Of a DNA stretch of 32,000 bases, positions 10,677 through 25,750 are shown piece after piece. Numbering within the stretch: the stretch's first letter is position 1; each line of letters begins with the position of its first letter. Source of the stretch: Desulfotalea psychrophila LSv54 (GTDB lineage Bacteria; Desulfobacterota; Desulfobulbia; Desulfobulbales; Desulfocapsaceae); contig NC_006138.1 in assembly GCF_000025945.1 (NCBI RefSeq), positions 960,001 through 992,000 on the forward strand. Reading direction: 5' to 3'. The notes below the pieces were generated by a model, which was not told the origin of the DNA, searched no databases, and saw nothing but the letters and a program-made list of their open reading frames with translations. The position numbers and the translations under genes are program-made.

Positions 10677-11207
10677 TCTGTGTAGTAAAGGATATTAACC
10701 ACAGAGGGCACAGAGACATTTTAGGTGAACTGCTTAAAAACAAAACCTTAATTCAGCTAAAAAGCTCTGTGCCCTTTAATCAATGGTCAGCCGTAGAGAC
10801 GTCGATTTATCGCGTCTCCGATACACCCCAGCGTCAACCTGTTACATCTGCTGTAAAGTAAAAGATATTAACCACTGGCAACCGAGATAGAAGAAAGATG
10901 CTAGATACGAGATACGAGAAAAAATTTAACAACGAGAAAAGCTTAAAAATAAGGCTGTTACCGCAGTTCTTTCTGGTATCCGCCGCTTCGCTGCTAGCAT
11001 CTCATATCTAGTCTCTGCCTTTCTGCCCTTTCTTTTACCCTTTAAATTTTAAAAATGAGTGTTCTCCAGGCAGTGGTTAGTTGCCCTTGCAGTTGTTCTT
11101 TCTTACAGCTGTCAGCTCCCAACTCACAGCTTGCTGCTATTTCTGTTGCAAGCTAATAAGGAACTCCGTTTGAACCATTTTCGTCCAAGAGGTAGAGAAT
11201 TTCCACC
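10677..11207. repeat. Mosaic intergenic repeat spacer 2
   Basis: TTAACCACAGAGGGCACAGAG...TTTTAGGTGAACTGCTTAAAA...CTTAATTCAG (10695-10774) recurs at 25113 and 25314. TTAACCACTGGCAACCGAG plus the GATGCTAGATACGAGATACGAG module (10868-10965) recurs at 14108-14211. GAGTGTTCTCCAGGCAGTGGTTAGTTGCCCTTGCAGTTG...CAGCTGTCAGCTCCCAACT recurs in spacers 1 and 3. Confidence 0.85.
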
Positions 11208-12371
11208 TTATAGGCATATTCGATTTCGTCCCGACTCCTTGGCCTCCTGTAGTTTTTTCCCAGCCCTTTTTAAGGTAGTCTCGAAGAGCTCTTCTTCCGC
11301 TCTATATATGGCGATACCAGCGCTAATGGTAATGTGAAATTTTTCATTGCGTTCATCAAAAACTAAACAGTCTGTTTCTGTTCTTATTATTTCAGTAATT
11401 TGTATTATCTCTTTTTCATTGTTGAAAAAACCAATAAGAAGAAACTCTTCACCACCAAAACGAATACTAAAATCATTTGGCCGGGTATTTTCTATAATAA
11501 TATTGGCTAATCTCTTTAAGACACGATCGCCACAGCTACGCCCATAGTTAGCGTTAATTTTTTTAAAGTGGTCAATATCCAAGTCTATTACTGCCAAAAG
11601 CTTTTCGTTATCCTGGTGCAGTTTTGTTAAGATAGTTGGTAAAATCTCTTTGAGGAATCGTTTTGTATAAAGGTTTGTAAGAGTATCCTTTATTGCAAGT
11701 TCACCAATTTGTCGTAGAAAATAATTTATAACAAAGATTGCAATGACAACAAAAACAATAAAACAGGCACTAAATATTACCGAGGTTTTAAAAACGATCC
11801 AAAAAATATTTTCCTGCATATCATCAAGATAGAGGCCTGTCCCCAGAACCCAGTCCCATGGGGTGAAATAGGTCACATAAGAAATTTTAGGACTCTCCTC
11901 GGGTATATTGGGCTTAGGCCAGTAGTATGAGACCCAACCGCCACCATTTTTAGCTGTGCTAATAAACTCTTTAAAAAAATATTTTCCCTTGAAGTCGGTC
12001 CAGTTGATGAGGTTAAGACCAACTCTATTCGGTGTATATGGTTGCATCAAAAGCACTCCTTCTCCACTGTTTACCCAGAGATAACCATTTGCTCCATATG
12101 TGGCTCCATTTAAGGTATTTAATGCTCTTGCCTTTGCCTGCGAAGAGGTCAGATTTCCATCTGCACTCAGTTGATAAAAATGTTGAACAACTCCCAGACC
12201 AACCTCAGTAATATGTTTAGATTGGTCTTTTTTTTCTTTTTCTAAATTTGTTGAAAGAGAGTAATGAAAAAACAAAAGAAAGGCAGTTAGTCCAAGACCA
12301 ATAAGAATAATAAATGCCAGAAGTTTCTTCTGAATCGGAGACCTGATTGTTAGGGATGCTGAGTTATTCAT
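11208..12371 (-). CDS. Sensor diguanylate cyclase (TM-sCache_2-TM-GGDEF)
   Basis: 387 aa. An N-terminal TM segment is followed by a periplasmic Cache-like segment (YLWVNSGEGVLLMQPY...GGGWVSYYWPKP...PKISYVTYFTPWDWVLGTGLYLDD) and a second TM. The GGDEF domain has DTLTNLYTKR, DIDHFKKINANYG and an intact RFGGEEF active site. The gene is visibly AT-rich (17/60 GC in line 11401-11460). Confidence 0.9.
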   Translation of the reverse strand: MNNSASLTIRSPIQKKLLAFIILIGLGLTAFLLFFHYSLSTNLEKEKKDQSKHITEVGLGVVQHFYQLSADGNLTSSQAKARALNTLNGATYGANGYLWVNSGEGVLLMQPYTPNRVGLNLINWTDFKGKYFFKEFISTAKNGGGWVSYYWPKPNIPEESPKISYVTYFTPWDWVLGTGLYLDDMQENIFWIVFKTSVIFSACFIVFVVIAIFVINYFLRQIGELAIKDTLTNLYTKRFLKEILPTILTKLHQDNEKLLAVIDLDIDHFKKINANYGRSCGDRVLKRLANIIIENTRPNDFSIRFGGEEFLLIGFFNNEKEIIQITEIIRTETDCLVFDERNEKFHITISAGIAIYRAEEELFETTLKRAGKKLQEAKESGRNRICL

Positions 12372-12878
12372 GGCTATACTCTCGCTTAATCTTGAGGTGT
12401 GGAGACGATAGTAGCTCTTTTCTAGGTGTCCTTTATTGTAGGAGAAAAAACAGATGTTGGGAATATTTTTATAATTTTTTTTTAAGCTGTTAAGGAAAAC
12501 AGGCCTAGATTAGGATATATATGTTACTTATTAAGGGGATGGCAGGAATCTGCTGGTGATGCTAAAACGTGGAGAGGATCAGTCGTATAACATCCAGTCA
12601 TTCAGATTTGTCTGGCAAAGACAGTTTGCTTTCATCACAATGGGAATTTTTCTAAACAACAGATTGGCATCACGGCCTGGAAAATGGAGTGGTGCTGGCG
12701 CAACAAAAGACTTAGGATAAATAAGGCGAGATTGCCCCCTGTTCCCACAGTTGCAGTTGTGCCAGTTGATCTTATTTTGGGACATTATATTCGCCCCCTG
12801 AGTATCTGCTAAGCCATAAGCGTCAACGAGGCAATAAAGGTATGGGCAAAGGGCAAACGGGAAAAGAGGTCGTCTACC

Positions 12879-13172
12879 TGTATAAAGCCTGAAAACCCGA
12901 GGAGACGAGCAATATACAGATGTATAAAGCCTTAAACACCGAAGAAAGAGACAATATACAAATGTATAAAGCCTGAAACACCGAAGAAACAGACAATATA
13001 TAAATGTATAAAGCCTGAAACACCGAAGAAACAGACAATATACAAATGTATAAAGCCTGAAAACCTGAGTTGACGGACAATATACGGATCTACACAGGCC
13101 AAAACCTTGAGGAGATGGCCAATATACATCCATACGAAGGCTCAAAACTTGGGTAAATGGCTTATCTGCGAG
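12879..13172. repeat. 42-bp tandem repeat array (5 good + 2 degenerate units)
   Basis: Units start at 12879, 12921, 12963, 13005 and 13047 (TGTATAAAGCCTGAAACACCGAAGAAACAGACAATATACAAA and close variants). Units at 13089 and 13131 are degenerate. Unit junctions form TATACA-AA-TGTATA inverted motifs. Confidence 0.92.
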
Positions 13173-13686
13173 CGTAGACAGTCTTTTTTATAGGGCAAGA
13201 TCAACATCCCTGATTTGCACTTACTGACAGCTCGCCATTTCGCTCGCCACTCGTTCGCCGCTACGCTGCTGATGCTACTCGTTGTCACTCACTGCTACTT
13301 CACTGCTGTTTTTCCTGCTCTTTCTAGTATCTGTCCTTGTCCTTTAAATTAAAAAAAATCAGTGTTCTCCAGGCAGTGGTTAAGCGCAGTTGCCCTTGCT
13401 TTTGTCCTTTCTGATAGCTGTTGGCTGACAGCTCCCAACTCGCCATTCCGCTCGCCACTCGTTCGCCGCTACGCTGCTGACGCCACTCGTTGTCACTCAA
13501 TGCTACTTCACTGCTATAGCTTCTTCCTATCGCTTTCCCGTCCCTGTCCTTGCCTGTGCCCTTTAACGTTAAAGTGTCCTTCTCTGTGTTCTCCCACCCT
13601 CTGTGGTGAACTGTTTTTTGTAGTTTTTGTAGTTTCTGGCCTATAATAGATTCTGCTTCTTGATCTACCCCATACATCAATAAAAA
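13173..13686. repeat. Mosaic intergenic repeat spacer 3 (contains an ~85-bp direct repeat pair)
   Basis: GACAGCTCGCCATTTCGCTCGCCACTCGTTCGCCGCTACGCTGCTGATGCTACTCGTTGTCACTCACTGCTACTTCACTGCT (13226-13307) is repeated at 13427-13515 with a few substitutions and a CCCAACT insert. Also present are TCAGTGTTCTCCAGGCAGTGGTTAA, CTGATAGCTG..GCTGACAGCTCCCAACT and TCTCTGTGTTCTCCCACCCTCTGTGGTGAACTGTTTTTT (13581-13619; compare 5811-5850). Confidence 0.88.
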
Positions 13687-13701
13687 TTGGAGGAGAGCAC
13701 C

Positions 13702-14094: not shown

Positions 14095-14770
14095 GGGCAT
14101 TTAAAAATCAACCACTGGAACCGAGGAAGAAAAAAGATGCTAGATGCTAGATACGAGATATGAGAAAAAACTTAACAGCGAAAAAAGATTAAAAATAAGG
14201 CTGTTACCGCATTTCTTTCTAGTGTCTAGCACTTCGTATCCGCCCTTGCCCTTGCTCTTCCTGGCACCTCCTAACTAATAGCTTCTCCCCACTTGTTCTC
14301 ACCCTCCTCGGAAAGAGACTTTCTGCCCAAAAAATTTTCCCGGAAGCAATGTCCTGTCAATTCTTAGGTAAGACCTTGAAAAGGTGTACAGAGCTACTCC
14401 TCCTCTTGGCAAGGGGAGGCTGGGTGGGGTTTGTCTTTTTTGCTGCATTTTAGCCAAAAAAATTCTCAGTGTTCTTCAAACAGTGGCCAATCGCTTTGCT
14501 TTTTCTAGTATCCGCCATTCCGCTGTGCTCCACTGCTAGCATCTAGCATCTAGCATCTAGTATCTCGCATCTGCTTTTACATCTTCTCTTTTCCTGAATA
14601 AGTATTGTAGTATCTTCTGGGGCTGTGGTAAAATGCCTTGGATATTCGTACGCTTACCAGATTGTGGTATCTGCCTCTTGCTGTGAGCTGGCTGGAAGTA
14701 GGATGTAGGATGGGCAGCAGCGAAGCGAAGCGGCGAAGGGAAGCGAAGCGGAGCGTGCCCATCAATGTTG
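14095..14770. repeat. Mosaic intergenic repeat spacer 4 (inverted heptamer arrays)
   Basis: The array (GATGCTA)x2 GATACGA GATATGA at 14136-14163 is mirrored by its reverse complement (TAGCATC)x3 TAGTATC TCGCATC at 14537-14571. Between them lie the central module AAAAAACTTAACAGCGAAAAAAGATTAAAAATAAGGCTGTTACCGCA, CCGCCATTCCGCTG..CACTGCT, CAGTGTTCTTCAAACAGTGGCCAA and the hairpin CTCCTCCTCTTGGCAAGGGGAGG (14397-14419). GCGAAGC-type repeats occupy 14715-14757. Confidence 0.88.
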
Positions 14771-14955
14771 ATGGGTGAGGAATTGGCTCATGTGAAGATT
14801 TTCAGTTTTTGGATGATGCTGGAGTAATACAATAAGTGAGGCTTTTCGGAGTTATCCAGGCCTTTATAATAACTTGTTGTGTGTGATTACAAATATCATC
14901 ATATATAGATTTGCATTATTGATAATCAGATGATCCATTTTAAGGAAATGCCAAA

Positions 14956-17900
14956 ATGATAAAAAATAATAGTTTAACAATTTTGCACCTATCAGATCTA
15001 CAGTTCGGAAAGAATCATAGATTTTTCCAATCAAATATTTCAGAAGAAAACTTCAATTTCAGTACACTTCAAGCAAGATTACAAACTGATCTTAAAATAG
15101 TAAAAAGTAAATATGATCTTGAACCAGACCTTATAGTTATCACTGGTGACCTAGTTGAATACGGTCAACAGTCTGAATTTGATCAAGCCAAAGTTTTCTT
15201 CAATGAGTTAGCTTCATTTTTGAATGTTCATATATCAAATGTATTAATTGTTCCAGGCAACCACGATATTAATAGAAAGGCATGTGAAGCATATTTTGCA
15301 GAATGTGAGGCTGACGAAAAAAAGCCTACTTTGCCTTATAAACCCAAATGGAGACATTTTAAAAATTTTTATAATAGCTTTTACTCAGATATTTCCAGAA
15401 AGTTTGATTTAGAAACTCCATTTGGGTGCACTGAATATCCTGAGTTGAAAGTAGCAGTTGCAAACCTTAATTCAACGGTTCAAGAAAGCCATCAAGAGAA
15501 AGATCATTATGGTTTGATTGGAGAGAATCAAGCTCAAAAAATTGCAGAGCAACTAGCGAAAAGAAAAGATGAAGGTTGGTTTAATATTGCAGCTGTTCAC
15601 CATAATGTTGTTCGCGGTGCAATAGAAGATGATGACAATTTACGAGATTCAGAAATGTTACAGAGGGTTATTGGTGATCACATAGATCTAATATTACACG
15701 GGCATACACACCGTGGAAAAATGCATTGGTGGTCCCCGCAGCTTCCAGTAATTGGAACGGGTAGTGCTTCTGTTGAAAAAAGTGCAAGACCAGATGAAGT
15801 GCCAAATCAATATCAATTACTAAAATTTACAGGGCTTGGTTTTACACGATATTGTCGTGCTTTTGCTCCGGATGAAGCGAAATGGATTCCTGATTCTAGA
15901 GTCAACGATGATGGTGTTGAAGAACATGAAATAAATTTTAGAAATGTGCACGCTGCATTTCCAGAATCACTAGAACAAAAAACAAATACACAAAATTCAA
16001 ATAATATAGATACGCTACCAAAAGAATTAGATGGTAGTAGCGATCAAATACCCAAAATATTTAGCCCAACATTTAAATTTCCGTTCACCCACTATTGTGA
16101 TTTACCACCTGTCGTAGATGTTTGGGTTGGAAGAGATAAACAATTAACTTCAGTTTTATCAACAAAAAGTGGTGTTGTTGCAATTACAGGCATAGGGGGA
16201 CAAGGGAAATCTGCACTCGCTGCTAAGTGCCTTGAACAATGGAAGCTGAATCACCCAAAATCATTTTGGGATTGGCGTGATTGTCGTGAAGAGGGCGATA
16301 GATTCCACACACAATTGTTAGGGCAAATTGAGAGGATTACAGATGGCGCTGTTGGAGGTGAAGAGTTGGCCGGTGCTCCAACGATCGATTTGGTTAAATA
16401 TTTGTTCGAAATAATAGGTGATCGTGATTGTTTGTTTGTTTTTGACAATGTTGACCAATATGTCAATGTAAACGAAAATTCCTTTGTTTCTGGTGTTTCG
16501 ACTTTCGTGAATGAGTCGTTAAGAGGAAAGCATAATTGCTTGATTCTTATTACTTGTAGACCACGAATAACATACCCCAACATCCGATTTTTCGAAATCT
16601 ATCTAGACGGGTTATTGTTTGAAGATACAATCGACTTGTTTAATAAACGTGGGGTTGATATCAAAAAAACTGGAATGCTTAATACTCTGAATGAGGTTTA
16701 CACTTTAACTGAAGGTCATCCTCTATGGCTTAACTTACTAGCAATACAAATATCAAGAGATGAAAAAAGTAGTGAGAATATTTTAGAAGAGTTGAGGAAC
16801 GGTGAGGCAGATAATAGGGCAAGGTCTATGTTACGACCTATTTGGAAAGGATTAAATGTTAACCAACAACAAGTTTTGCGTTGTATGGCAGAAATCCCAA
16901 GGCCAATGGACTCTGTCCAAATTCATAATTGCATAAGTGGTAAAATAAAAACATTTAACAGATTTAAGAGAGCGTTCAAGACCATAAAAGCATTAAGTCT
17001 GGTTGTTAAATGCGAGTCCGATGACGGCAACAACAAATATGATTTGCATCCTTTAGTTCGTAGTTTTATCAAAACTGAGTACGCTACAACCAAAGAGAGA
17101 TTGCCTTACATTGATCCGATAGTTTGCTATTTAAGGCAGCTAATTATGGGTTCATCGGCAAAAATTAGCACTGAGACTTCTTTTGATAAGCTGAGAATGT
17201 GGTCCGAAAAAGCTGAACTAGAAATAGAATCAGGGCTTATGGCGGATGCTGTTGAGTCATTAGGTTATGTGGCAAATAGATTGTTAGCAATGGGTTATTC
17301 TGAGGAATTGTTCCGTGTAGGTAAACGAATAATTGATGATTTTATCATTAACCCTTCTCATTATAATGAGATAAAAGAATTTGATGAGTTATTTCAAGTC
17401 ATCATTGAAGCTCTAATTGAATTTGGTCACGAAGCTGATGCGCGTCGTTTCCTAAAAAACTACGAAGATTTTGTTGAGGAAGGGACCGCACTGTTTATAG
17501 GTTTTTGTAGTCTCATGACATGGGTTGAGTGGCATCTTTATAACTATGACGAAGCTATTTATTGGGGAGAACGTGGTAGGTACTTAAAGAAACAATCTTC
17601 AATTGACACTTCCTGCGACTGTAGCCATAACCTTGCATTAGCATTACGAGACTCAGGTCGCTATGCGGAAGCAATGGAATATTTTTTAATGGGTAATTCA
17701 CTTGAATCTTTATTTTATGCTGATGCTGAATCAGAAAGAGATGGTTCTTTCTGGGGGAATATTGGACGCTGCTTGATGCTTCAAGGTGATTACATAAATG
17801 CTATTCAATGTCTTAAAAAATCTGCAGAATCACTAGGTAATGACCAAGGTGCAAACGGGATAAAAAATCAAGGATATGCTGCAAAGTGGATCGCACAATG

Positions 17901-18186
17901 CCTAGAAGAATGTTCAATCCTTGATGATGCGTACATTTTTTATCGTAAAGCAAAGAGCATATGGGATCAAAGAGCACCTATACTTTCTCATGAAATTAAC
18001 GTTAAGTTGAAAGATTTGGAACAATCTAAAAGACTTAACGAAGTGCTTAAACTAGGGGAGAAAGATATAATCAGGCGGTGTTCTGTTTGGCTAAAAAGCG
18101 ATCCAGTCCCTAAATCAGGGAAGAGGGTGCACACAACCAACCATTCCACCGGACTCGTTGAAGCTCGCCGCAGAGCTTGTCGTTAG
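14956..18186 (+). CDS. Metallophosphoesterase-NB-ARC (STAND P-loop NTPase)-TPR fusion protein; candidate NLR/Avs-like defence protein
   Basis: 1076 aa; AAGGAA lies 9 nt upstream of the ATG.
- aa 7-300: calcineurin-like phosphoesterase motifs LHLSDLQFG, TGDLVEYG, VPGNHD, AVHHNV and LHGHTHRG.
- aa ~390-705: NB-ARC signatures, namely Walker A GIGGQGKSA (K418, nt 16207-16209), Walker B CLFVFDNVD (D497), LILITCR, a GLPLAL-like TEGHPLWL and a winged-helix YDLHPLVRSF (MHD-like).
- aa ~740-1010: TPR-like helical repeats (NLALALRDSGRYAEAMEYF; GNIGRCLMLQGDYINAIQCLKKS; YAAKWIAQCLEECSILDDAYIFYRKA).
I see no HTH or DNA-binding module. The gene is visibly AT-rich relative to its neighbours. Confidence 0.9.
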   Translation: MIKNNSLTILHLSDLQFGKNHRFFQSNISEENFNFSTLQARLQTDLKIVKSKYDLEPDLIVITGDLVEYGQQSEFDQAKVFFNELASFLNVHISNVLIVPGNHDINRKACEAYFAECEADEKKPTLPYKPKWRHFKNFYNSFYSDISRKFDLETPFGCTEYPELKVAVANLNSTVQESHQEKDHYGLIGENQAQKIAEQLAKRKDEGWFNIAAVHHNVVRGAIEDDDNLRDSEMLQRVIGDHIDLILHGHTHRGKMHWWSPQLPVIGTGSASVEKSARPDEVPNQYQLLKFTGLGFTRYCRAFAPDEAKWIPDSRVNDDGVEEHEINFRNVHAAFPESLEQKTNTQNSNNIDTLPKELDGSSDQIPKIFSPTFKFPFTHYCDLPPVVDVWVGRDKQLTSVLSTKSGVVAITGIGGQGKSALAAKCLEQWKLNHPKSFWDWRDCREEGDRFHTQLLGQIERITDGAVGGEELAGAPTIDLVKYLFEIIGDRDCLFVFDNVDQYVNVNENSFVSGVSTFVNESLRGKHNCLILITCRPRITYPNIRFFEIYLDGLLFEDTIDLFNKRGVDIKKTGMLNTLNEVYTLTEGHPLWLNLLAIQISRDEKSSENILEELRNGEADNRARSMLRPIWKGLNVNQQQVLRCMAEIPRPMDSVQIHNCISGKIKTFNRFKRAFKTIKALSLVVKCESDDGNNKYDLHPLVRSFIKTEYATTKERLPYIDPIVCYLRQLIMGSSAKISTETSFDKLRMWSEKAELEIESGLMADAVESLGYVANRLLAMGYSEELFRVGKRIIDDFIINPSHYNEIKEFDELFQVIIEALIEFGHEADARRFLKNYEDFVEEGTALFIGFCSLMTWVEWHLYNYDEAIYWGERGRYLKKQSSIDTSCDCSHNLALALRDSGRYAEAMEYFLMGNSLESLFYADAESERDGSFWGNIGRCLMLQGDYINAIQCLKKSAESLGNDQGANGIKNQGYAAKWIAQCLEECSILDDAYIFYRKAKSIWDQRAPILSHEINVKLKDLEQSKRLNEVLKLGEKDIIRRCSVWLKSDPVPKSGKRVHTTNHSTGLVEARRRACR

Positions 18187-18349
18187 CTCCCACACCTCTC
18201 CTCCTCTTCTCCGAGTGGACTGGGAGGGGGAATGTGAAAAATGGCTCACAGAACCAACGCCCCTAGTGTCAGTTTGATTTCTCCCCTAATCTTGCCCTAT
18301 ACTATGGGTTCAAACTCGTGCCACCCCCAAACCTCAACCAGAGACTATC

Positions 18350-18490
18350 ATGTATTGGCTTCTCACCAAATATCTGCTTACCGCGGCGATTGTTGTCCTG
18401 GTCTCGGAGGTGGCAAAGCGTAGCGACAGGTACTTCTCTTCCGGGTCTTGCAATCGCCTTTGTAGTTGCAGTGGCTTTTGTATTTTCTAG
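18350..18490 (+). pseudogene. 5' remnant of a small membrane-protein gene (DUF3147-like N-terminus) truncated by repeat sequence
   Basis: The ATG at 18350 gives MYWLLTKYLLTAAIVVLVSEVAKRSDR. This resembles the conserved N-terminus of DUF3147-type proteins (...ITK.I.SA.IIV.VSEV.KRS...), recalled from memory. From about 18431 the frame runs into repeat modules (GCAGTGGCTTTTGTATTTTCTAGCATCCGCCATTCCGC) and stops at 18490. Confidence 0.35.
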
Positions 18491-18830
18491 CATCCGCCAT
18501 TCCGCAGTGCTTCACTGCTGTTTTTCCTGCTCTTTCTAGTATCTAGTATCTCGTATCCGTCCTTGTCCTTTAAATTAAAAATGTTCTCCTCCGTGTTCTC
18601 TGTGCCCTCTGTGGTTAGCGGCTCTTGCTCTTATCTCTTTTAGCCTGTCTATCGGCCAAAAAAAATCCCCTCCTCTTGCGAGGAGAGGGTCGTTACCTCT
18701 TTTTCTGTCCTTGCAGTCGCCCTTGTAGTAGTAGTGGCTTTTGCATTTTCTCGCATCTAACATCCGCCATTCCACTGCTGCTTTTTTGCCCTTTCTGACA
18801 GCTCCTAACTGAGAGCTTTCAGCTGCTTTT
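18431..18830. repeat. Mosaic intergenic repeat spacer 5
   Basis: CATCCGCCATTCCGCAGTGCTTCACTGCTGTTTTTCCTGCTCTTTC, then (TAGTATC)x2 TCGTATC (18537-18557), TCCTTGTCCTTTAAATTAAAAA and GTTCTCCTCCGTGTTCTCTGTGCCCTCTGTGGTTAG (18581-18617). A second CATCCGCCATTCCACTGCTGC and CTGACAGCTCCTAACT follow at 18760-18812. All are shared with spacers 1, 3 and 6. Confidence 0.85.
18658..18689 (-). terminator. Rho-independent terminator-like hairpin downstream of xsc
   Basis: The minus strand reads CCCTCTCCTC-GCAA-GAGGAGGGG followed by A then TTTTTTTT (the plus-strand A-run at 18658-18665). It lies about 140 nt past the xsc stop. Related hairpin cores (CCTCTTG(G)CRAGG) occur at 14397-14419 and about 25268-25281, so it may be a module of the repeat family. 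Confidence 0.5.
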
Positions 18831-25050: not shown

Positions 25051-25750
25051 TTGCCAGCTATCAGTAGCAGTGAAGCATAGTGAAGTGGCGAAAAGCAAAA
25101 AGCAAAAAAAAGTTAACCACAGAGGAAGAAGAGTACACAGAGGAAAATATTTTAGGTGAACTGCTTAAAAAAACAAAAACTTAATTTAGTTAAAAAACTC
25201 CTTGCCCTTGTATTTTTAAAGAGCTGGTAATGTGCAATTGTATTGTCTAATCAATGGAATAGATCTTCCTCTTGGCGAGGGTAGGTGTGCTGCCCTCTGT
25301 GCAGAAAAAGACATTAACCACAGAGCTCACAGAGTTCACAGAGGACAGGGGAAGAAGGTCGTTTTAGGTGAACTGCCTAAAAGATCAGGACTTAATTTAG
25401 TGTTGGGCCCCTGATGATTTCCTAGACATCCGGTTTAAGATGTAAGCCATCCTTCTGTTGCACATCTTTTTTTCCTATAGTTCTTTAATTTATGCCCTCT
25501 GTGTCCTCCCCTCCTCTGTGGTTAACCGTAGTTGCAGTTGTCCTTGCCCTTGCTCTTTCTTACAGCTTATAGCTGACAGCTAACAACTCGCCATTCCACT
25601 CCGCTTCACTGTTGTAATTGCAGTGGTTTTGGCATTTTCTAGTATCTAGAATCTCGTATCCGCCATTCCGCTTGTCACTCGTTTGACGCCACTCGTTGTC
25701 ACTCACTGCTACTCGCTGCTGCTTCACTGCTGTTTTTGTCTTTCTTTTTG
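25051..25750. repeat. Mosaic intergenic repeat spacer 6 (contains a TIR-bounded ~413-bp unit)
   Basis: The left half carries reverse-orientation modules (CAGCTATCAGTAGCAGTGAAGCATAGTGAAGTGGCGA). TTAACCACAGAGG... copies occur at 25113 and 25314. The inverted arm CCCTCTGTGTCCTCCCCTCCTCTGTGGTTAA lies at 25495-25525. These are followed by GCTGACAGCTAACAACTCGCCATTCCACTCCGCTTCACTG, TAGTATC TAGAATC TCGTATC (25640-25660) and CCGCCATTCCGCTTGTCACTCG...CTTCACTGCTG. Confidence 0.85.

Follow-up and report, generated by a model that had tools for sequence, protein, structure and literature searches.

What kind of protein, and with what role in the cell, is encoded by the large gene near the middle of a 32,000-nucleotide stretch of the Desulfotalea psychrophila LSv54 genome (contig NC_006138.1, positions 960,001 to 992,000; the whole stretch is referred to below as the window and is numbered from its first letter)? 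The gene is a single uninterrupted 3.2-kb open reading frame (ORF) at positions 14956–18186 of the + strand that starts with ATG and encodes 1076 amino acids, and its product was 100% identical to an NCBI entry named 'metallophosphoesterase [Desulfotalea psychrophila]'. A preliminary description, made from the sequence alone, saw in this ORF an N-terminal metallophosphoesterase (MPE), a central STAND NTPase of the NB-ARC type and C-terminal TPR-like repeats, and this three-part architecture was borne out by Pfam matches, by alignment of homologues and by AlphaFold2 modelling with Foldseek comparison. Results presented below indicate that the protein is probably a stand-alone NLR-like (Avs-type) immune receptor with an MPE effector that would hydrolyse NAD+ and/or (d)NDP/(d)NTP and thereby bring about abortive infection.

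Calls of residue invariance and the AlphaFold2 model were both based on an alignment of 38 full-length homologues. Full-length homologues aligned from residue 1, and homology to all relatives stopped near residue 1050, in agreement with a complete MPE-NB-ARC-TPR gene of 1076 codons plus stop, and the mean predicted local distance difference test (pLDDT) score of the model was 82.9, with disorder (pLDDT <50) confined to residues 337–378 and 1054–1076. The calcineurin-like MPE, which is of the DS-9A/MisA-like (Calcineurin-CE) type and has D14-x-Q16 as motif I, occupies residues 1–336 (positions 14956–15963) and is followed by a disordered linker between effector and NTPase, the point of effector exchange (residues 337–380, positions 15964–16095). 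The STAND nucleotide-binding domain (NBD), with Walker A GIGGQGKS (K418), Walker B LFVFD497 and a sensor-I-like T533-x-R535, corresponds to residues 381–545 (positions 16096–16590), helical domain 1 (HD1) and the winged-helix domain (WHD), with GHPLWL (G587-H588) and LHPLVR (H698), to residues 546–710 (positions 16591–17085) and the TPR-like helical repeat sensor, assigned from Pfam TPR matches and the all-helical model, to residues 711–1050 (positions 17086–18105). The remaining 81 nucleotides (positions 18106–18186) encode a disordered, non-conserved tail (residues 1051–1076) and the stop codon; relatives likewise have short, variable tails. All of these features lie on the + strand, and all motifs quoted in the preliminary description fell in invariant or nearly invariant columns of the alignment.

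The identity of the putative effector was evident from profile searches. Thus, Pfam Metallophos (PF00149) matched residues 8–253 (E=2.2e-16, 61.3 bits against a cut-off of 21.5), and G64-D65, G101-N102-H103-D104, H215-H216 and G249-H250-x-H252 were invariant among the 38 homologues while D14 was nearly so. The best NCBIfam match was to DS9_1_antiphage (NF053862, 'anti-phage phosphoesterase'; E=5.5e-38), in which residues 3–282 aligned with profile positions 190–484 of 486; the score of 131 bits, compared with an equivalog cut-off of 420, reflects the Cal domain only. The DS8_antiphage profile (NF053861) was also matched (E=5.6e-11), but at 40.9 bits, far short of its cut-off of 790, and only between residues 54–254 and profile positions 31–230 of 994. 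The closest characterised relative of the effector, as judged by these comparisons, is DS-9A/MisA. DS-9, a metallophosphatase and HAD pair validated by DefensePredictor, is the same system as Metis (PUA-Cal-HAD), in which the PUA domain senses m6dAMP, the MisA/Cal domain cleaves NAD+ to nicotinamide mononucleotide (NMN) and AMP, and PUA-Cal together with HAD converts dNTPs to dNDPs and then to dNMPs, with assembly of filaments. The PUA-Cal residues essential for defence, D207/H209, D255, N367, H420 and H462/H464, corresponded to D14/Q16, D65, N172, H215 and H250/H252 of the present protein and H293, a further PUA-Cal metal ligand in the cryo-EM structure, to H103, this correspondence being inferred from motif order and spacing, and the sole change among aligned residues was that of H209 to Q16.

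The replacement in motif I was noted subfamily-wide (residues 9–24, positions 14980–15027; relatives P0121–P0163), in fusions with NA-iREase3, TIR and STAND domains. It forms part of a subclade signature, HLSD[LP]QFGxxHRF, and since DxQ and FGxxHRF are kept in about 40 relatives of varied architecture, this signature appears to be a selected one. The same conservation bears on whether the gene might be a decaying or catalytically dead relic, as could be suspected from D14-x-Q16 in place of D-x-H, from the disorder and lack of conservation of the last 26 residues and from the repeat-rich DNA that surrounds the gene. Such a relic is very unlikely, given in addition that no other metal ligand and no NTPase motif has been lost, that the 3.2-kb ORF is uninterrupted and that the tails of homologues are also short and variable.

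The nearest relatives of the MPE alone (41–51% identity) were fusions of 450–560 amino acids that join the MPE to NA-iREase3, a 'NACHT-associated' adaptor, and members of this MPE family at a greater distance were fused to EAD7, TIR, CHAT, receiver or PUA-like domains; one of the PUA-like fusions (P0175) was DS-9A-like and scored 340 bits against DS9_1. Fusions of these kinds are typical of effectors in conflict systems. A different result was obtained with MPEs carried by other proteins that share the STAND-TPR body (P0008, P0016 and P0041), which scored 97–127 bits against positions 1 to about 290 of the DS-8 profile and matched DS9_1 weakly. The DS-9A-like character of the D. psychrophila MPE and the DS-8-like character of these others indicate that two MPE lineages were recruited to the same chassis independently.

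Structural comparison pointed in a similar direction. The nearest neighbours of the modelled MPE fold in Foldseek searches were Rv0805 (template modelling [TM] score 0.75, root-mean-square deviation 4.0), GpdQ, Lmo2642 and SMPDL3A, and Lmo2642 was also matched in a profile search of PDB sequences (E=3.9e-13). That these best structural neighbours are small-molecule phosphodiesterases is relevant to the alternative in which the same receptor carries an Mre11/SbcD-type nuclease that degrades DNA or RNA on activation. A nuclease would be consistent with the match to a PADLOC model labelled 'Effector - Endonuclease' (PDLC00736), with weak NCBIfam matches to SbcD (E=3.5e-4) and Mre11 (E=8e-3), which were also weak in the PDB profile search, and with the presence of Mrr-type nucleases at the same N-terminal place in paralogues. 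However, the DS-9A/MisA match (E=5.5e-38) was far above those to SbcD and Mre11, characterised relatives act on NAD+ and nucleotides, and no Mre11-type capping or DNA-binding domain was predicted. On balance, a DNA- or RNA-degrading effector is improbable.

Similar considerations apply to the proposal that the MPE is a cyclic-nucleotide or other second-messenger phosphodiesterase, either one with which the activated receptor destroys a signalling nucleotide or a non-immune, STAND-regulated enzyme of host signalling through, for example, cAMP or c-di-GMP. The class III cyclic nucleotide monophosphate phosphodiesterases Rv0805, CpdA (PRK11148, E=1.5e-6) and Lmo2642 are neighbours of the MPE in sequence or structure, the authors who described DS-8 suggested a cyclic-nucleotide target by analogy with SMPDL3A, calcineurin phosphodiesterases are counted among cyclic-nucleotide-cleaving modules (Aravind and colleagues; Kaur et al. 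2020) and the window has a gene for a GGDEF diguanylate cyclase at a distance of 2.6 kb upstream. However, this GGDEF gene was not kept beside a 75%-identical orthologue (locus L009), no nucleotide cyclase or other partner was conserved nearby, and the closest characterised relative cleaves NAD+. Furthermore, destruction of a second messenger would not by itself provide an effector output for a stand-alone sensor-effector, and the paralogous effectors (SIR2, TIR, Mrr and transmembrane) all kill or deplete. We consider a signalling phosphodiesterase to be improbable to much the same degree as a nuclease. Thus, of the mechanisms offered in the preliminary description, depletion of the nucleotide pool is favoured by the DS-9A match, while DNA or RNA degradation and second-messenger loss are retained as rivals.

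Attribution of the central region to the NB-ARC or AP-ATPase clade of STAND NTPases was based on motifs, on profiles and on structure. Among the 38 homologues, invariant residues included G412..G415-Q-G-K418-S419 of Walker A, D497 of Walker B with N498 and D500, T533 and R535 of LILITCR, G587-H588 of GHPLWL and L697-H698-P699 of LHPLVR, so that the P-loop, Walker B, TxR, GxP-type and winged-helix His motifs that are the hallmark of this clade were all present. The Pfam NB-ARC gathering threshold of 23.5 bits was passed by more distant family members, with scores of up to 42.7 bits (another scored 40.3), and many members have precomputed PF00931 matches. Thus, of the Pfam assignments anticipated in the preliminary description, Metallophos and TPR_1 exceeded their cut-offs in the D. 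psychrophila protein and NB-ARC did so only in homologues. The best match of the body to PDB structures in Foldseek was the STAND-TPR protein PH0952 (6mfv, E=4e-15), followed by Apaf-1 (E=3e-11), CED-4 (E=1e-8) and the NB-ARC domain of NRC1 (E=6e-8, TM score 0.68), and MalT, plant NRC NB-ARC domains and Avs3 were also among the matches; a profile match of the body to 6mfv was noted in the PDB sequence search (E=2.3e-17). In the model, therefore, the predicted body adopts the NBD-HD1-WHD fold of the NB-ARC clade, and the expectation that the body would resemble Apaf-1 and other STAND folds and the N-terminus MPE folds was realised. When the whole model was used as query, the second-ranked match was Bacillus subtilis YydB (PDB 9a6c chain B, E=4e-12, target-normalised TM score 0.52); 9a6c is an integrative YydD-YydB model, which hints that YydB and YydD may be a related MPE-plus-ATPase pair.

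Residues 711–1050 were modelled as entirely helical with high confidence, Pfam TPR matches fell at residues 889–960 (TPR_1, 29.9 bits against a cut-off of 27.8), and the PDB profile search gave matches to the PH0952 TPR sensor protein and to consensus TPRs. Within the body, the nucleotide-binding domain was best conserved (47% mean identity), while the TPR half at residues 861–1050 (36%) was close to the helical domains of the NTPase (37–39%). Conservation of the TPR half to the extent seen for the NTPase helical domains suggests that a conserved ligand may be recognised.

The importance of the body as a common chassis was evident from proteins that share it. From residue 381 to approximately residue 1050, it was 30–45% identical to proteins with unlike N-termini, and the sharp boundary at about residue 381 coincided with the disordered linker. 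Clustering of the N-termini of the 120 best matches gave 47 SIR2_2 domains, 41 MPEs, more than 20 multi-transmembrane regions belonging to several unrelated clusters and a single TIR domain, and more distant members carried Mrr_cat nuclease, Schlafen AlbA_2 or SEFIR/TIR N-termini. An exhaustive phmmer (HMMER) scan of 1.84 billion representatives found 234 clusters, defined at 50% identity, at E<=1e-30, a number that rose to 633 when the limit was E<=1e-3, which marks the family as small and sharply bounded; partial matches in the same scan resembled truncated genes rather than stand-alone sensors. Relatives in species-representative genomes numbered 483, a count that includes loci with a match to the MPE domain only. 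The body was found in Bacteroidota, Acidobacteriota, Pseudomonadota, Planctomycetota, Verrucomicrobiota, Actinomycetota and others, and on three plasmids, with a patchy taxonomic spread. No body homologue was present in the phage collection searched, and there was thus no sign of a prophage origin; E. coli genomes likewise contained nothing that matched the gene or its flank. Public labels for the family are limited to 'metallophosphoesterase', 'ATP-binding', 'NB-ARC domain-containing' or 'SIR2 family protein'.

Many homologues had recognisable genes of defence or conflict systems no more than 10 kb away. Thus, a 63%-identical homologue directly followed Thoeris genes (ThsA SIR2-STALD, ThsB TIR and a TIR_2 protein), a multi-transmembrane form was flanked by a type I restriction-modification system and GmrSD, and a SIR2 form had Druantia/CBASS-like genes (DruA and SMODS+SLATT) in its vicinity together with reverse transcriptases and an integrase. 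An MPE-STAND-TPR homologue (P0041) adjoined a gene for a DUF4062 and HATPase_c_4 protein (L002, 13695–15212), and DUF4062 is reported in a 2026 preprint to be an immune NADase domain ('NIR'). Of two other homologues, one was near a TIR_2 protein and a ribbon-helix-helix protein, and the second shared its surroundings with caspases, a WD40 protein of giant size and a DUF433/DUF5615 toxin-antitoxin pair. Similarly, a homologue on a Pantoea plasmid adjoined an integrase near a retron-type HNH/ATPase pair, and one on a Rhizobium plasmid had toxin-antitoxin pairs as neighbours. When 138 neighbour ORFs from 15 further loci were pooled and scanned with PADLOC, they matched type I restriction-modification, MADS and PDC-M48 models, as per-family counts that are not quantitative.

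No conserved partner was found: no family occurred in more than 3 of 27 loci among 252 neighbour ORFs, which indicates a single-gene unit, as the preliminary description had proposed. A HAD hydrolase gene (Hydrolase, Hydrolase_6 and Hydrolase_like matches) was noted 66 bp downstream of homologue P0014 (L005, 9360–10139), an arrangement that recalls Cal-HAD of Metis; a conserved HAD partner of the Metis kind was rejected as a candidate, this being the only homologue with HAD downstream.

In D. psychrophila itself, the gene is preceded by genes for MoeA, an M55 peptidase, DUF4405, GGDEF and SnoaL proteins and followed by one for a thiamine pyrophosphate enzyme, whereas the 75%-identical orthologue, in a metagenome-assembled genome, lies in the context rpsA ... 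guaB, guaA. The G+C content of the gene was 35–38% compared with approximately 48–54% for most of the window and approximately 50% for the flanks. Together, the unrelated contexts of close orthologues and the low G+C content indicate horizontal acquisition, in keeping with the AT-rich, apparently horizontally acquired gene of the preliminary description.

According to a further alternative, the protein has no part in immunity and acts as a STAND regulator like MalT or AfsR or as a housekeeping scaffold; this view draws on the housekeeping genes that flank the D. psychrophila gene and on the matches of the body to PH0952, its best structural match, and to MalT. Several results speak against this alternative. 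No helix-turn-helix domain was found among Pfam or NCBIfam matches of the protein at E<=1, which upholds the argument made in the preliminary description against a transcription factor of this type, and the Pfam scan showed no other DNA-binding domain. In addition, the N-terminus is swapped for SIR2, TIR, Mrr, Schlafen or transmembrane domains, there is no conserved operon, the distribution is patchy and includes plasmids, and defence genes are often near homologues. A regulator or scaffold of this sort is thus hardly credible. Conversely, the immune-receptor reading is supported by the combination of effector exchange on one body, absence of helix-turn-helix domains and of a conserved partner, and presence of defence neighbours, and the NLR/Avs-like receptor of the preliminary description was sustained on the same grounds.

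A working model can be proposed for the probable immune receptor. In the resting state, the NB-ARC region would hold ADP by means of its P-loop and the MHD-like His698, and the TPR-like C-terminus would keep the protein closed. When a phage or another mobile element infects the cell, the TPR sensor would bind a conserved ligand, most likely a phage protein, and this would permit nucleotide exchange and oligomerisation of the NTPase, and the N-terminal MPE domains would then be clustered and switched on. As a Calcineurin-CE-type enzyme, the MPE most likely cuts pyrophosphate or phosphodiester bonds of free nucleotides, and the predicted substrates are NAD+, which would be split to NMN and AMP, and/or (d)NDP/(d)NTP pools. 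Depletion of these pools would arrest the growth of, or kill, the infected cell and so stop phage replication.

A number of observations weigh against this reading and were taken into account in grading it. With respect to the NTPase, the D. psychrophila protein alone scored below the Pfam cut-offs for both NACHT (21.2 bits, residues 407–539) and NB-ARC (18.5 bits, residues 402–613). With respect to substrate, motif I lacks the canonical metal-ligand D-x-H, and metal or substrate preference, and indeed activity, could differ from those of MisA; no HAD partner was conserved across the 27 loci or present among the scanned ORFs that flank the gene, and DS-9A needs HAD for dNTP depletion. These two features, the DxQ motif and the missing HAD gene, are the principal grounds for caution about the substrate. 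In addition, PDLC00736 (residues 31–255, E=2e-11) was the only other PADLOC domain-level match, and, given that Mrr nuclease and multi-transmembrane effectors occur on the same chassis, the equivalence of effectors does not favour NAD+ or nucleotides over other targets. With respect to defence, we infer anti-phage activity of this protein, and of any member of the STAND-TPR family, from comparison with other systems, and the proximity of the family to defence genes is a qualitative finding made without a matched background. Housekeeping genes were neighbours at the D. psychrophila locus, at that of the 75%-identical orthologue and at those of two other homologues. The preliminary description had named the placement of homologues in conserved housekeeping operons with no defence association as grounds for refutation; housekeeping neighbours were seen at four loci, no conserved operon was found and many homologues had defence neighbours.

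Other features of the window include a dispersed family of intergenic repeats, found in several intergenic regions at 10680–11200, 13150–13690, 14100–14800, 18190–18830 and 25652–25671. The repeat core TCTAGYATCCGCCATTCCGC occurred 4 times compared with 0 expected, a 35-nt stretch was identical at positions 13298 and 18510, and inverted arms of the CTAGCATCTAGCATCT type were noted at 14128 and 14536. The mobile-looking repeats of the preliminary description are thus real, but they belong to a family with copies elsewhere and do not delimit the gene; flanking repeats as island borders were accordingly rejected, and the argument from them for a mobile unit is weak. No Rfam family was matched at gathering thresholds in the whole window, repeats included, and no tRNA was found by tRNA scan, so that neither a tRNA integration site nor a known RNA was evident in the repeat-rich flanks. 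Promoter and terminator scans gave results near shuffle expectations.

Three further observations concern the surroundings of the gene. Approximately six tandem copies of a 42-nt unit (positions 12837–13172) were noted inside an ORF at 12579–13145 (- strand, 188 amino acids) that had no Pfam match, and the ORF may encode a small protein with repeats or may simply be repeat DNA that is not translated. A short ORF at 18350–18490 (+ strand) starts MYWLLTKYLLTAAIVVLVSEVAKRSDR and enters a repeat element at 18431, and resembles what is left, at the 5' end, of a gene for a small membrane protein cut by the repeat; its assignment as a truncated DUF3147-type membrane gene had no Pfam support. The GGDEF gene upstream (11208–12371, - strand) encodes an sCache_2-GGDEF diguanylate cyclase. 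It too is AT-rich relative to the DNA around it, at approximately 38% G+C, and may likewise have been acquired horizontally.

The extent to which the system is new can be judged from what has been catalogued. The preliminary description called it a candidate undescribed system, which no longer holds for the general concept: calcineurin effectors on STAND proteins have been published, a defence design of this kind has been validated in E. coli (DS-8) and the MPE is close to DS-9A/MisA. Since both MPE-STAND defence (DS-8) and Calcineurin-CE chemistry were already published, the conceptual advance is modest. PADLOC v2.0.0, AVAST (Avs1-5) included, matched only the MPE domain of the D. psychrophila protein, and SIR2, TIR and transmembrane paralogues were matched by their effectors or not at all. 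Similarly, NCBIfam r20 contained no model for the STAND-TPR body of this protein or of these paralogues, the closest being a weak match to a TPR protein of the FxSxx-COOH system. Judged against the PADLOC v2 and NCBIfam r20 models, none of which it matched, a DS-9A-type MPE with a DxQ variant on an NB-ARC-TPR chassis appears to be new. It is possible, and we suggest it tentatively, that the protein represents an uncatalogued 'Avs-like' NB-ARC-TPR family with a short conserved sensor, a recruited DS-9A-type Calcineurin-CE enzyme of the DxQ variant and a trigger unlike those of Avs1-21, and the first NLR-type receptor with pyrophosphatase-type cleavage of NAD+ or nucleotide diphosphates that is free of HAD.

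If these proposals are correct, the nucleotide-targeting Calcineurin-CE effector, whose characterisation has so far been confined to a system with PUA sensor and HAD partner, could also be driven by NLR-type oligomerisation, and an NB-ARC/TPR chassis with its own trigger would be added to the bacterial pattern-recognition receptors. The DxQ variant would amount to a natural test of what sets the preference of defence phosphoesterases for metal and substrate. The generic public labels amount to an annotation gap for a family of approximately 234 clusters that extends across many phyla and some plasmids.

Comparison with known systems places the protein among several groups. Kaur et al. (2020) listed calcineurin-superfamily phosphoesterases among the effectors of NTP-dependent conflict systems, calcineurin-type domains were then presented as one interchangeable N-terminal effector of STAND NTPases (Kaur et al. 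2021, eLife), and the Calcineurin-CE family was reportedly defined in 2023 (Nicastro et al. 2023 NAR). The present protein resembles the conflict systems in that the nearest relatives of its MPE carry their adaptors NA-iREase3 and EAD7, and differs in its NB-ARC-TPR body; STAND examples of the earlier work include NACHT, MNS or nSTAND1 proteins with FGS sensors (Kaur et al. 2021).

The anti-phage activity of DS-8 was validated in the DefensePredictor study (DeWeirdt, Mahoney & Laub, Science 2026). In this one polypeptide a metallophosphatase precedes a NACHT domain, and defence depends on the NTPase as well as on the catalytic residues of the MPE. The D. psychrophila protein is like DS-8 in having an MPE followed by a STAND NTPase in one polypeptide; in contrast, it combines an NB-ARC/AP-ATPase-like NTPase and a TPR sensor while the body of DS-8 is of the NACHT type, and its MPE is DS-9A-like. 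With DS-9A/MisA, a metal-dependent nucleotide phosphoesterase and abortive-infection effector, it shares the motif layout SDLxFGxxHxF, GD, PGNHDI, LNS, HH and LHGHxH. It differs from DS-9A in that a PUA-like domain is absent (no Pfam match to PF24405, which true DS-9A-like proteins do match, and the MPE starts at residue 8), as is a HAD partner, in that sensing would be by STAND-TPR as opposed to m6dAMP binding, and in having DxQ as opposed to DxH in motif I.

Similarity to Avs/AVAST was noted in the succession of N-terminal effector, STAND NTPase and C-terminal TPR-like sensor, in single-gene organisation, horizontal spread and defence neighbours and in modular effector sets that comprise SIR2, TIR, Mrr and transmembrane domains. 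According to Lee et al. (Nature 2026), who extended the Avs series to Avs7-24, prokaryotic STAND proteins form 589 clades of which 198 are defence-associated, phage-protein triggers have been assigned for Avs7, Avs8 and Avs10-21, and Avs22-24 are anti-phage with no trigger identified; sensor clustering in that study took sensors of at least 400 amino acids. The present sensor is short (approximately 340). The NTPases also differ: that of Avs5 is nSTAND3 while the present family is NB-ARC-like, and the D. psychrophila NTPase is structurally nearer PH0952 and Apaf-1 than Avs3 or Avs5. Finally, the protein shares with Apaf-1, CED-4, plant NLRs and PH0952 the NBD-HD1-WHD arrangement, P-loop, Walker B, TxR, GxP-like and MHD-like His motifs; sequence identity is only 13–17%, and, in contrast with CARD, coiled-coil (CC) or TIR adaptors, this bacterial single-gene system has an enzyme fused in cis.

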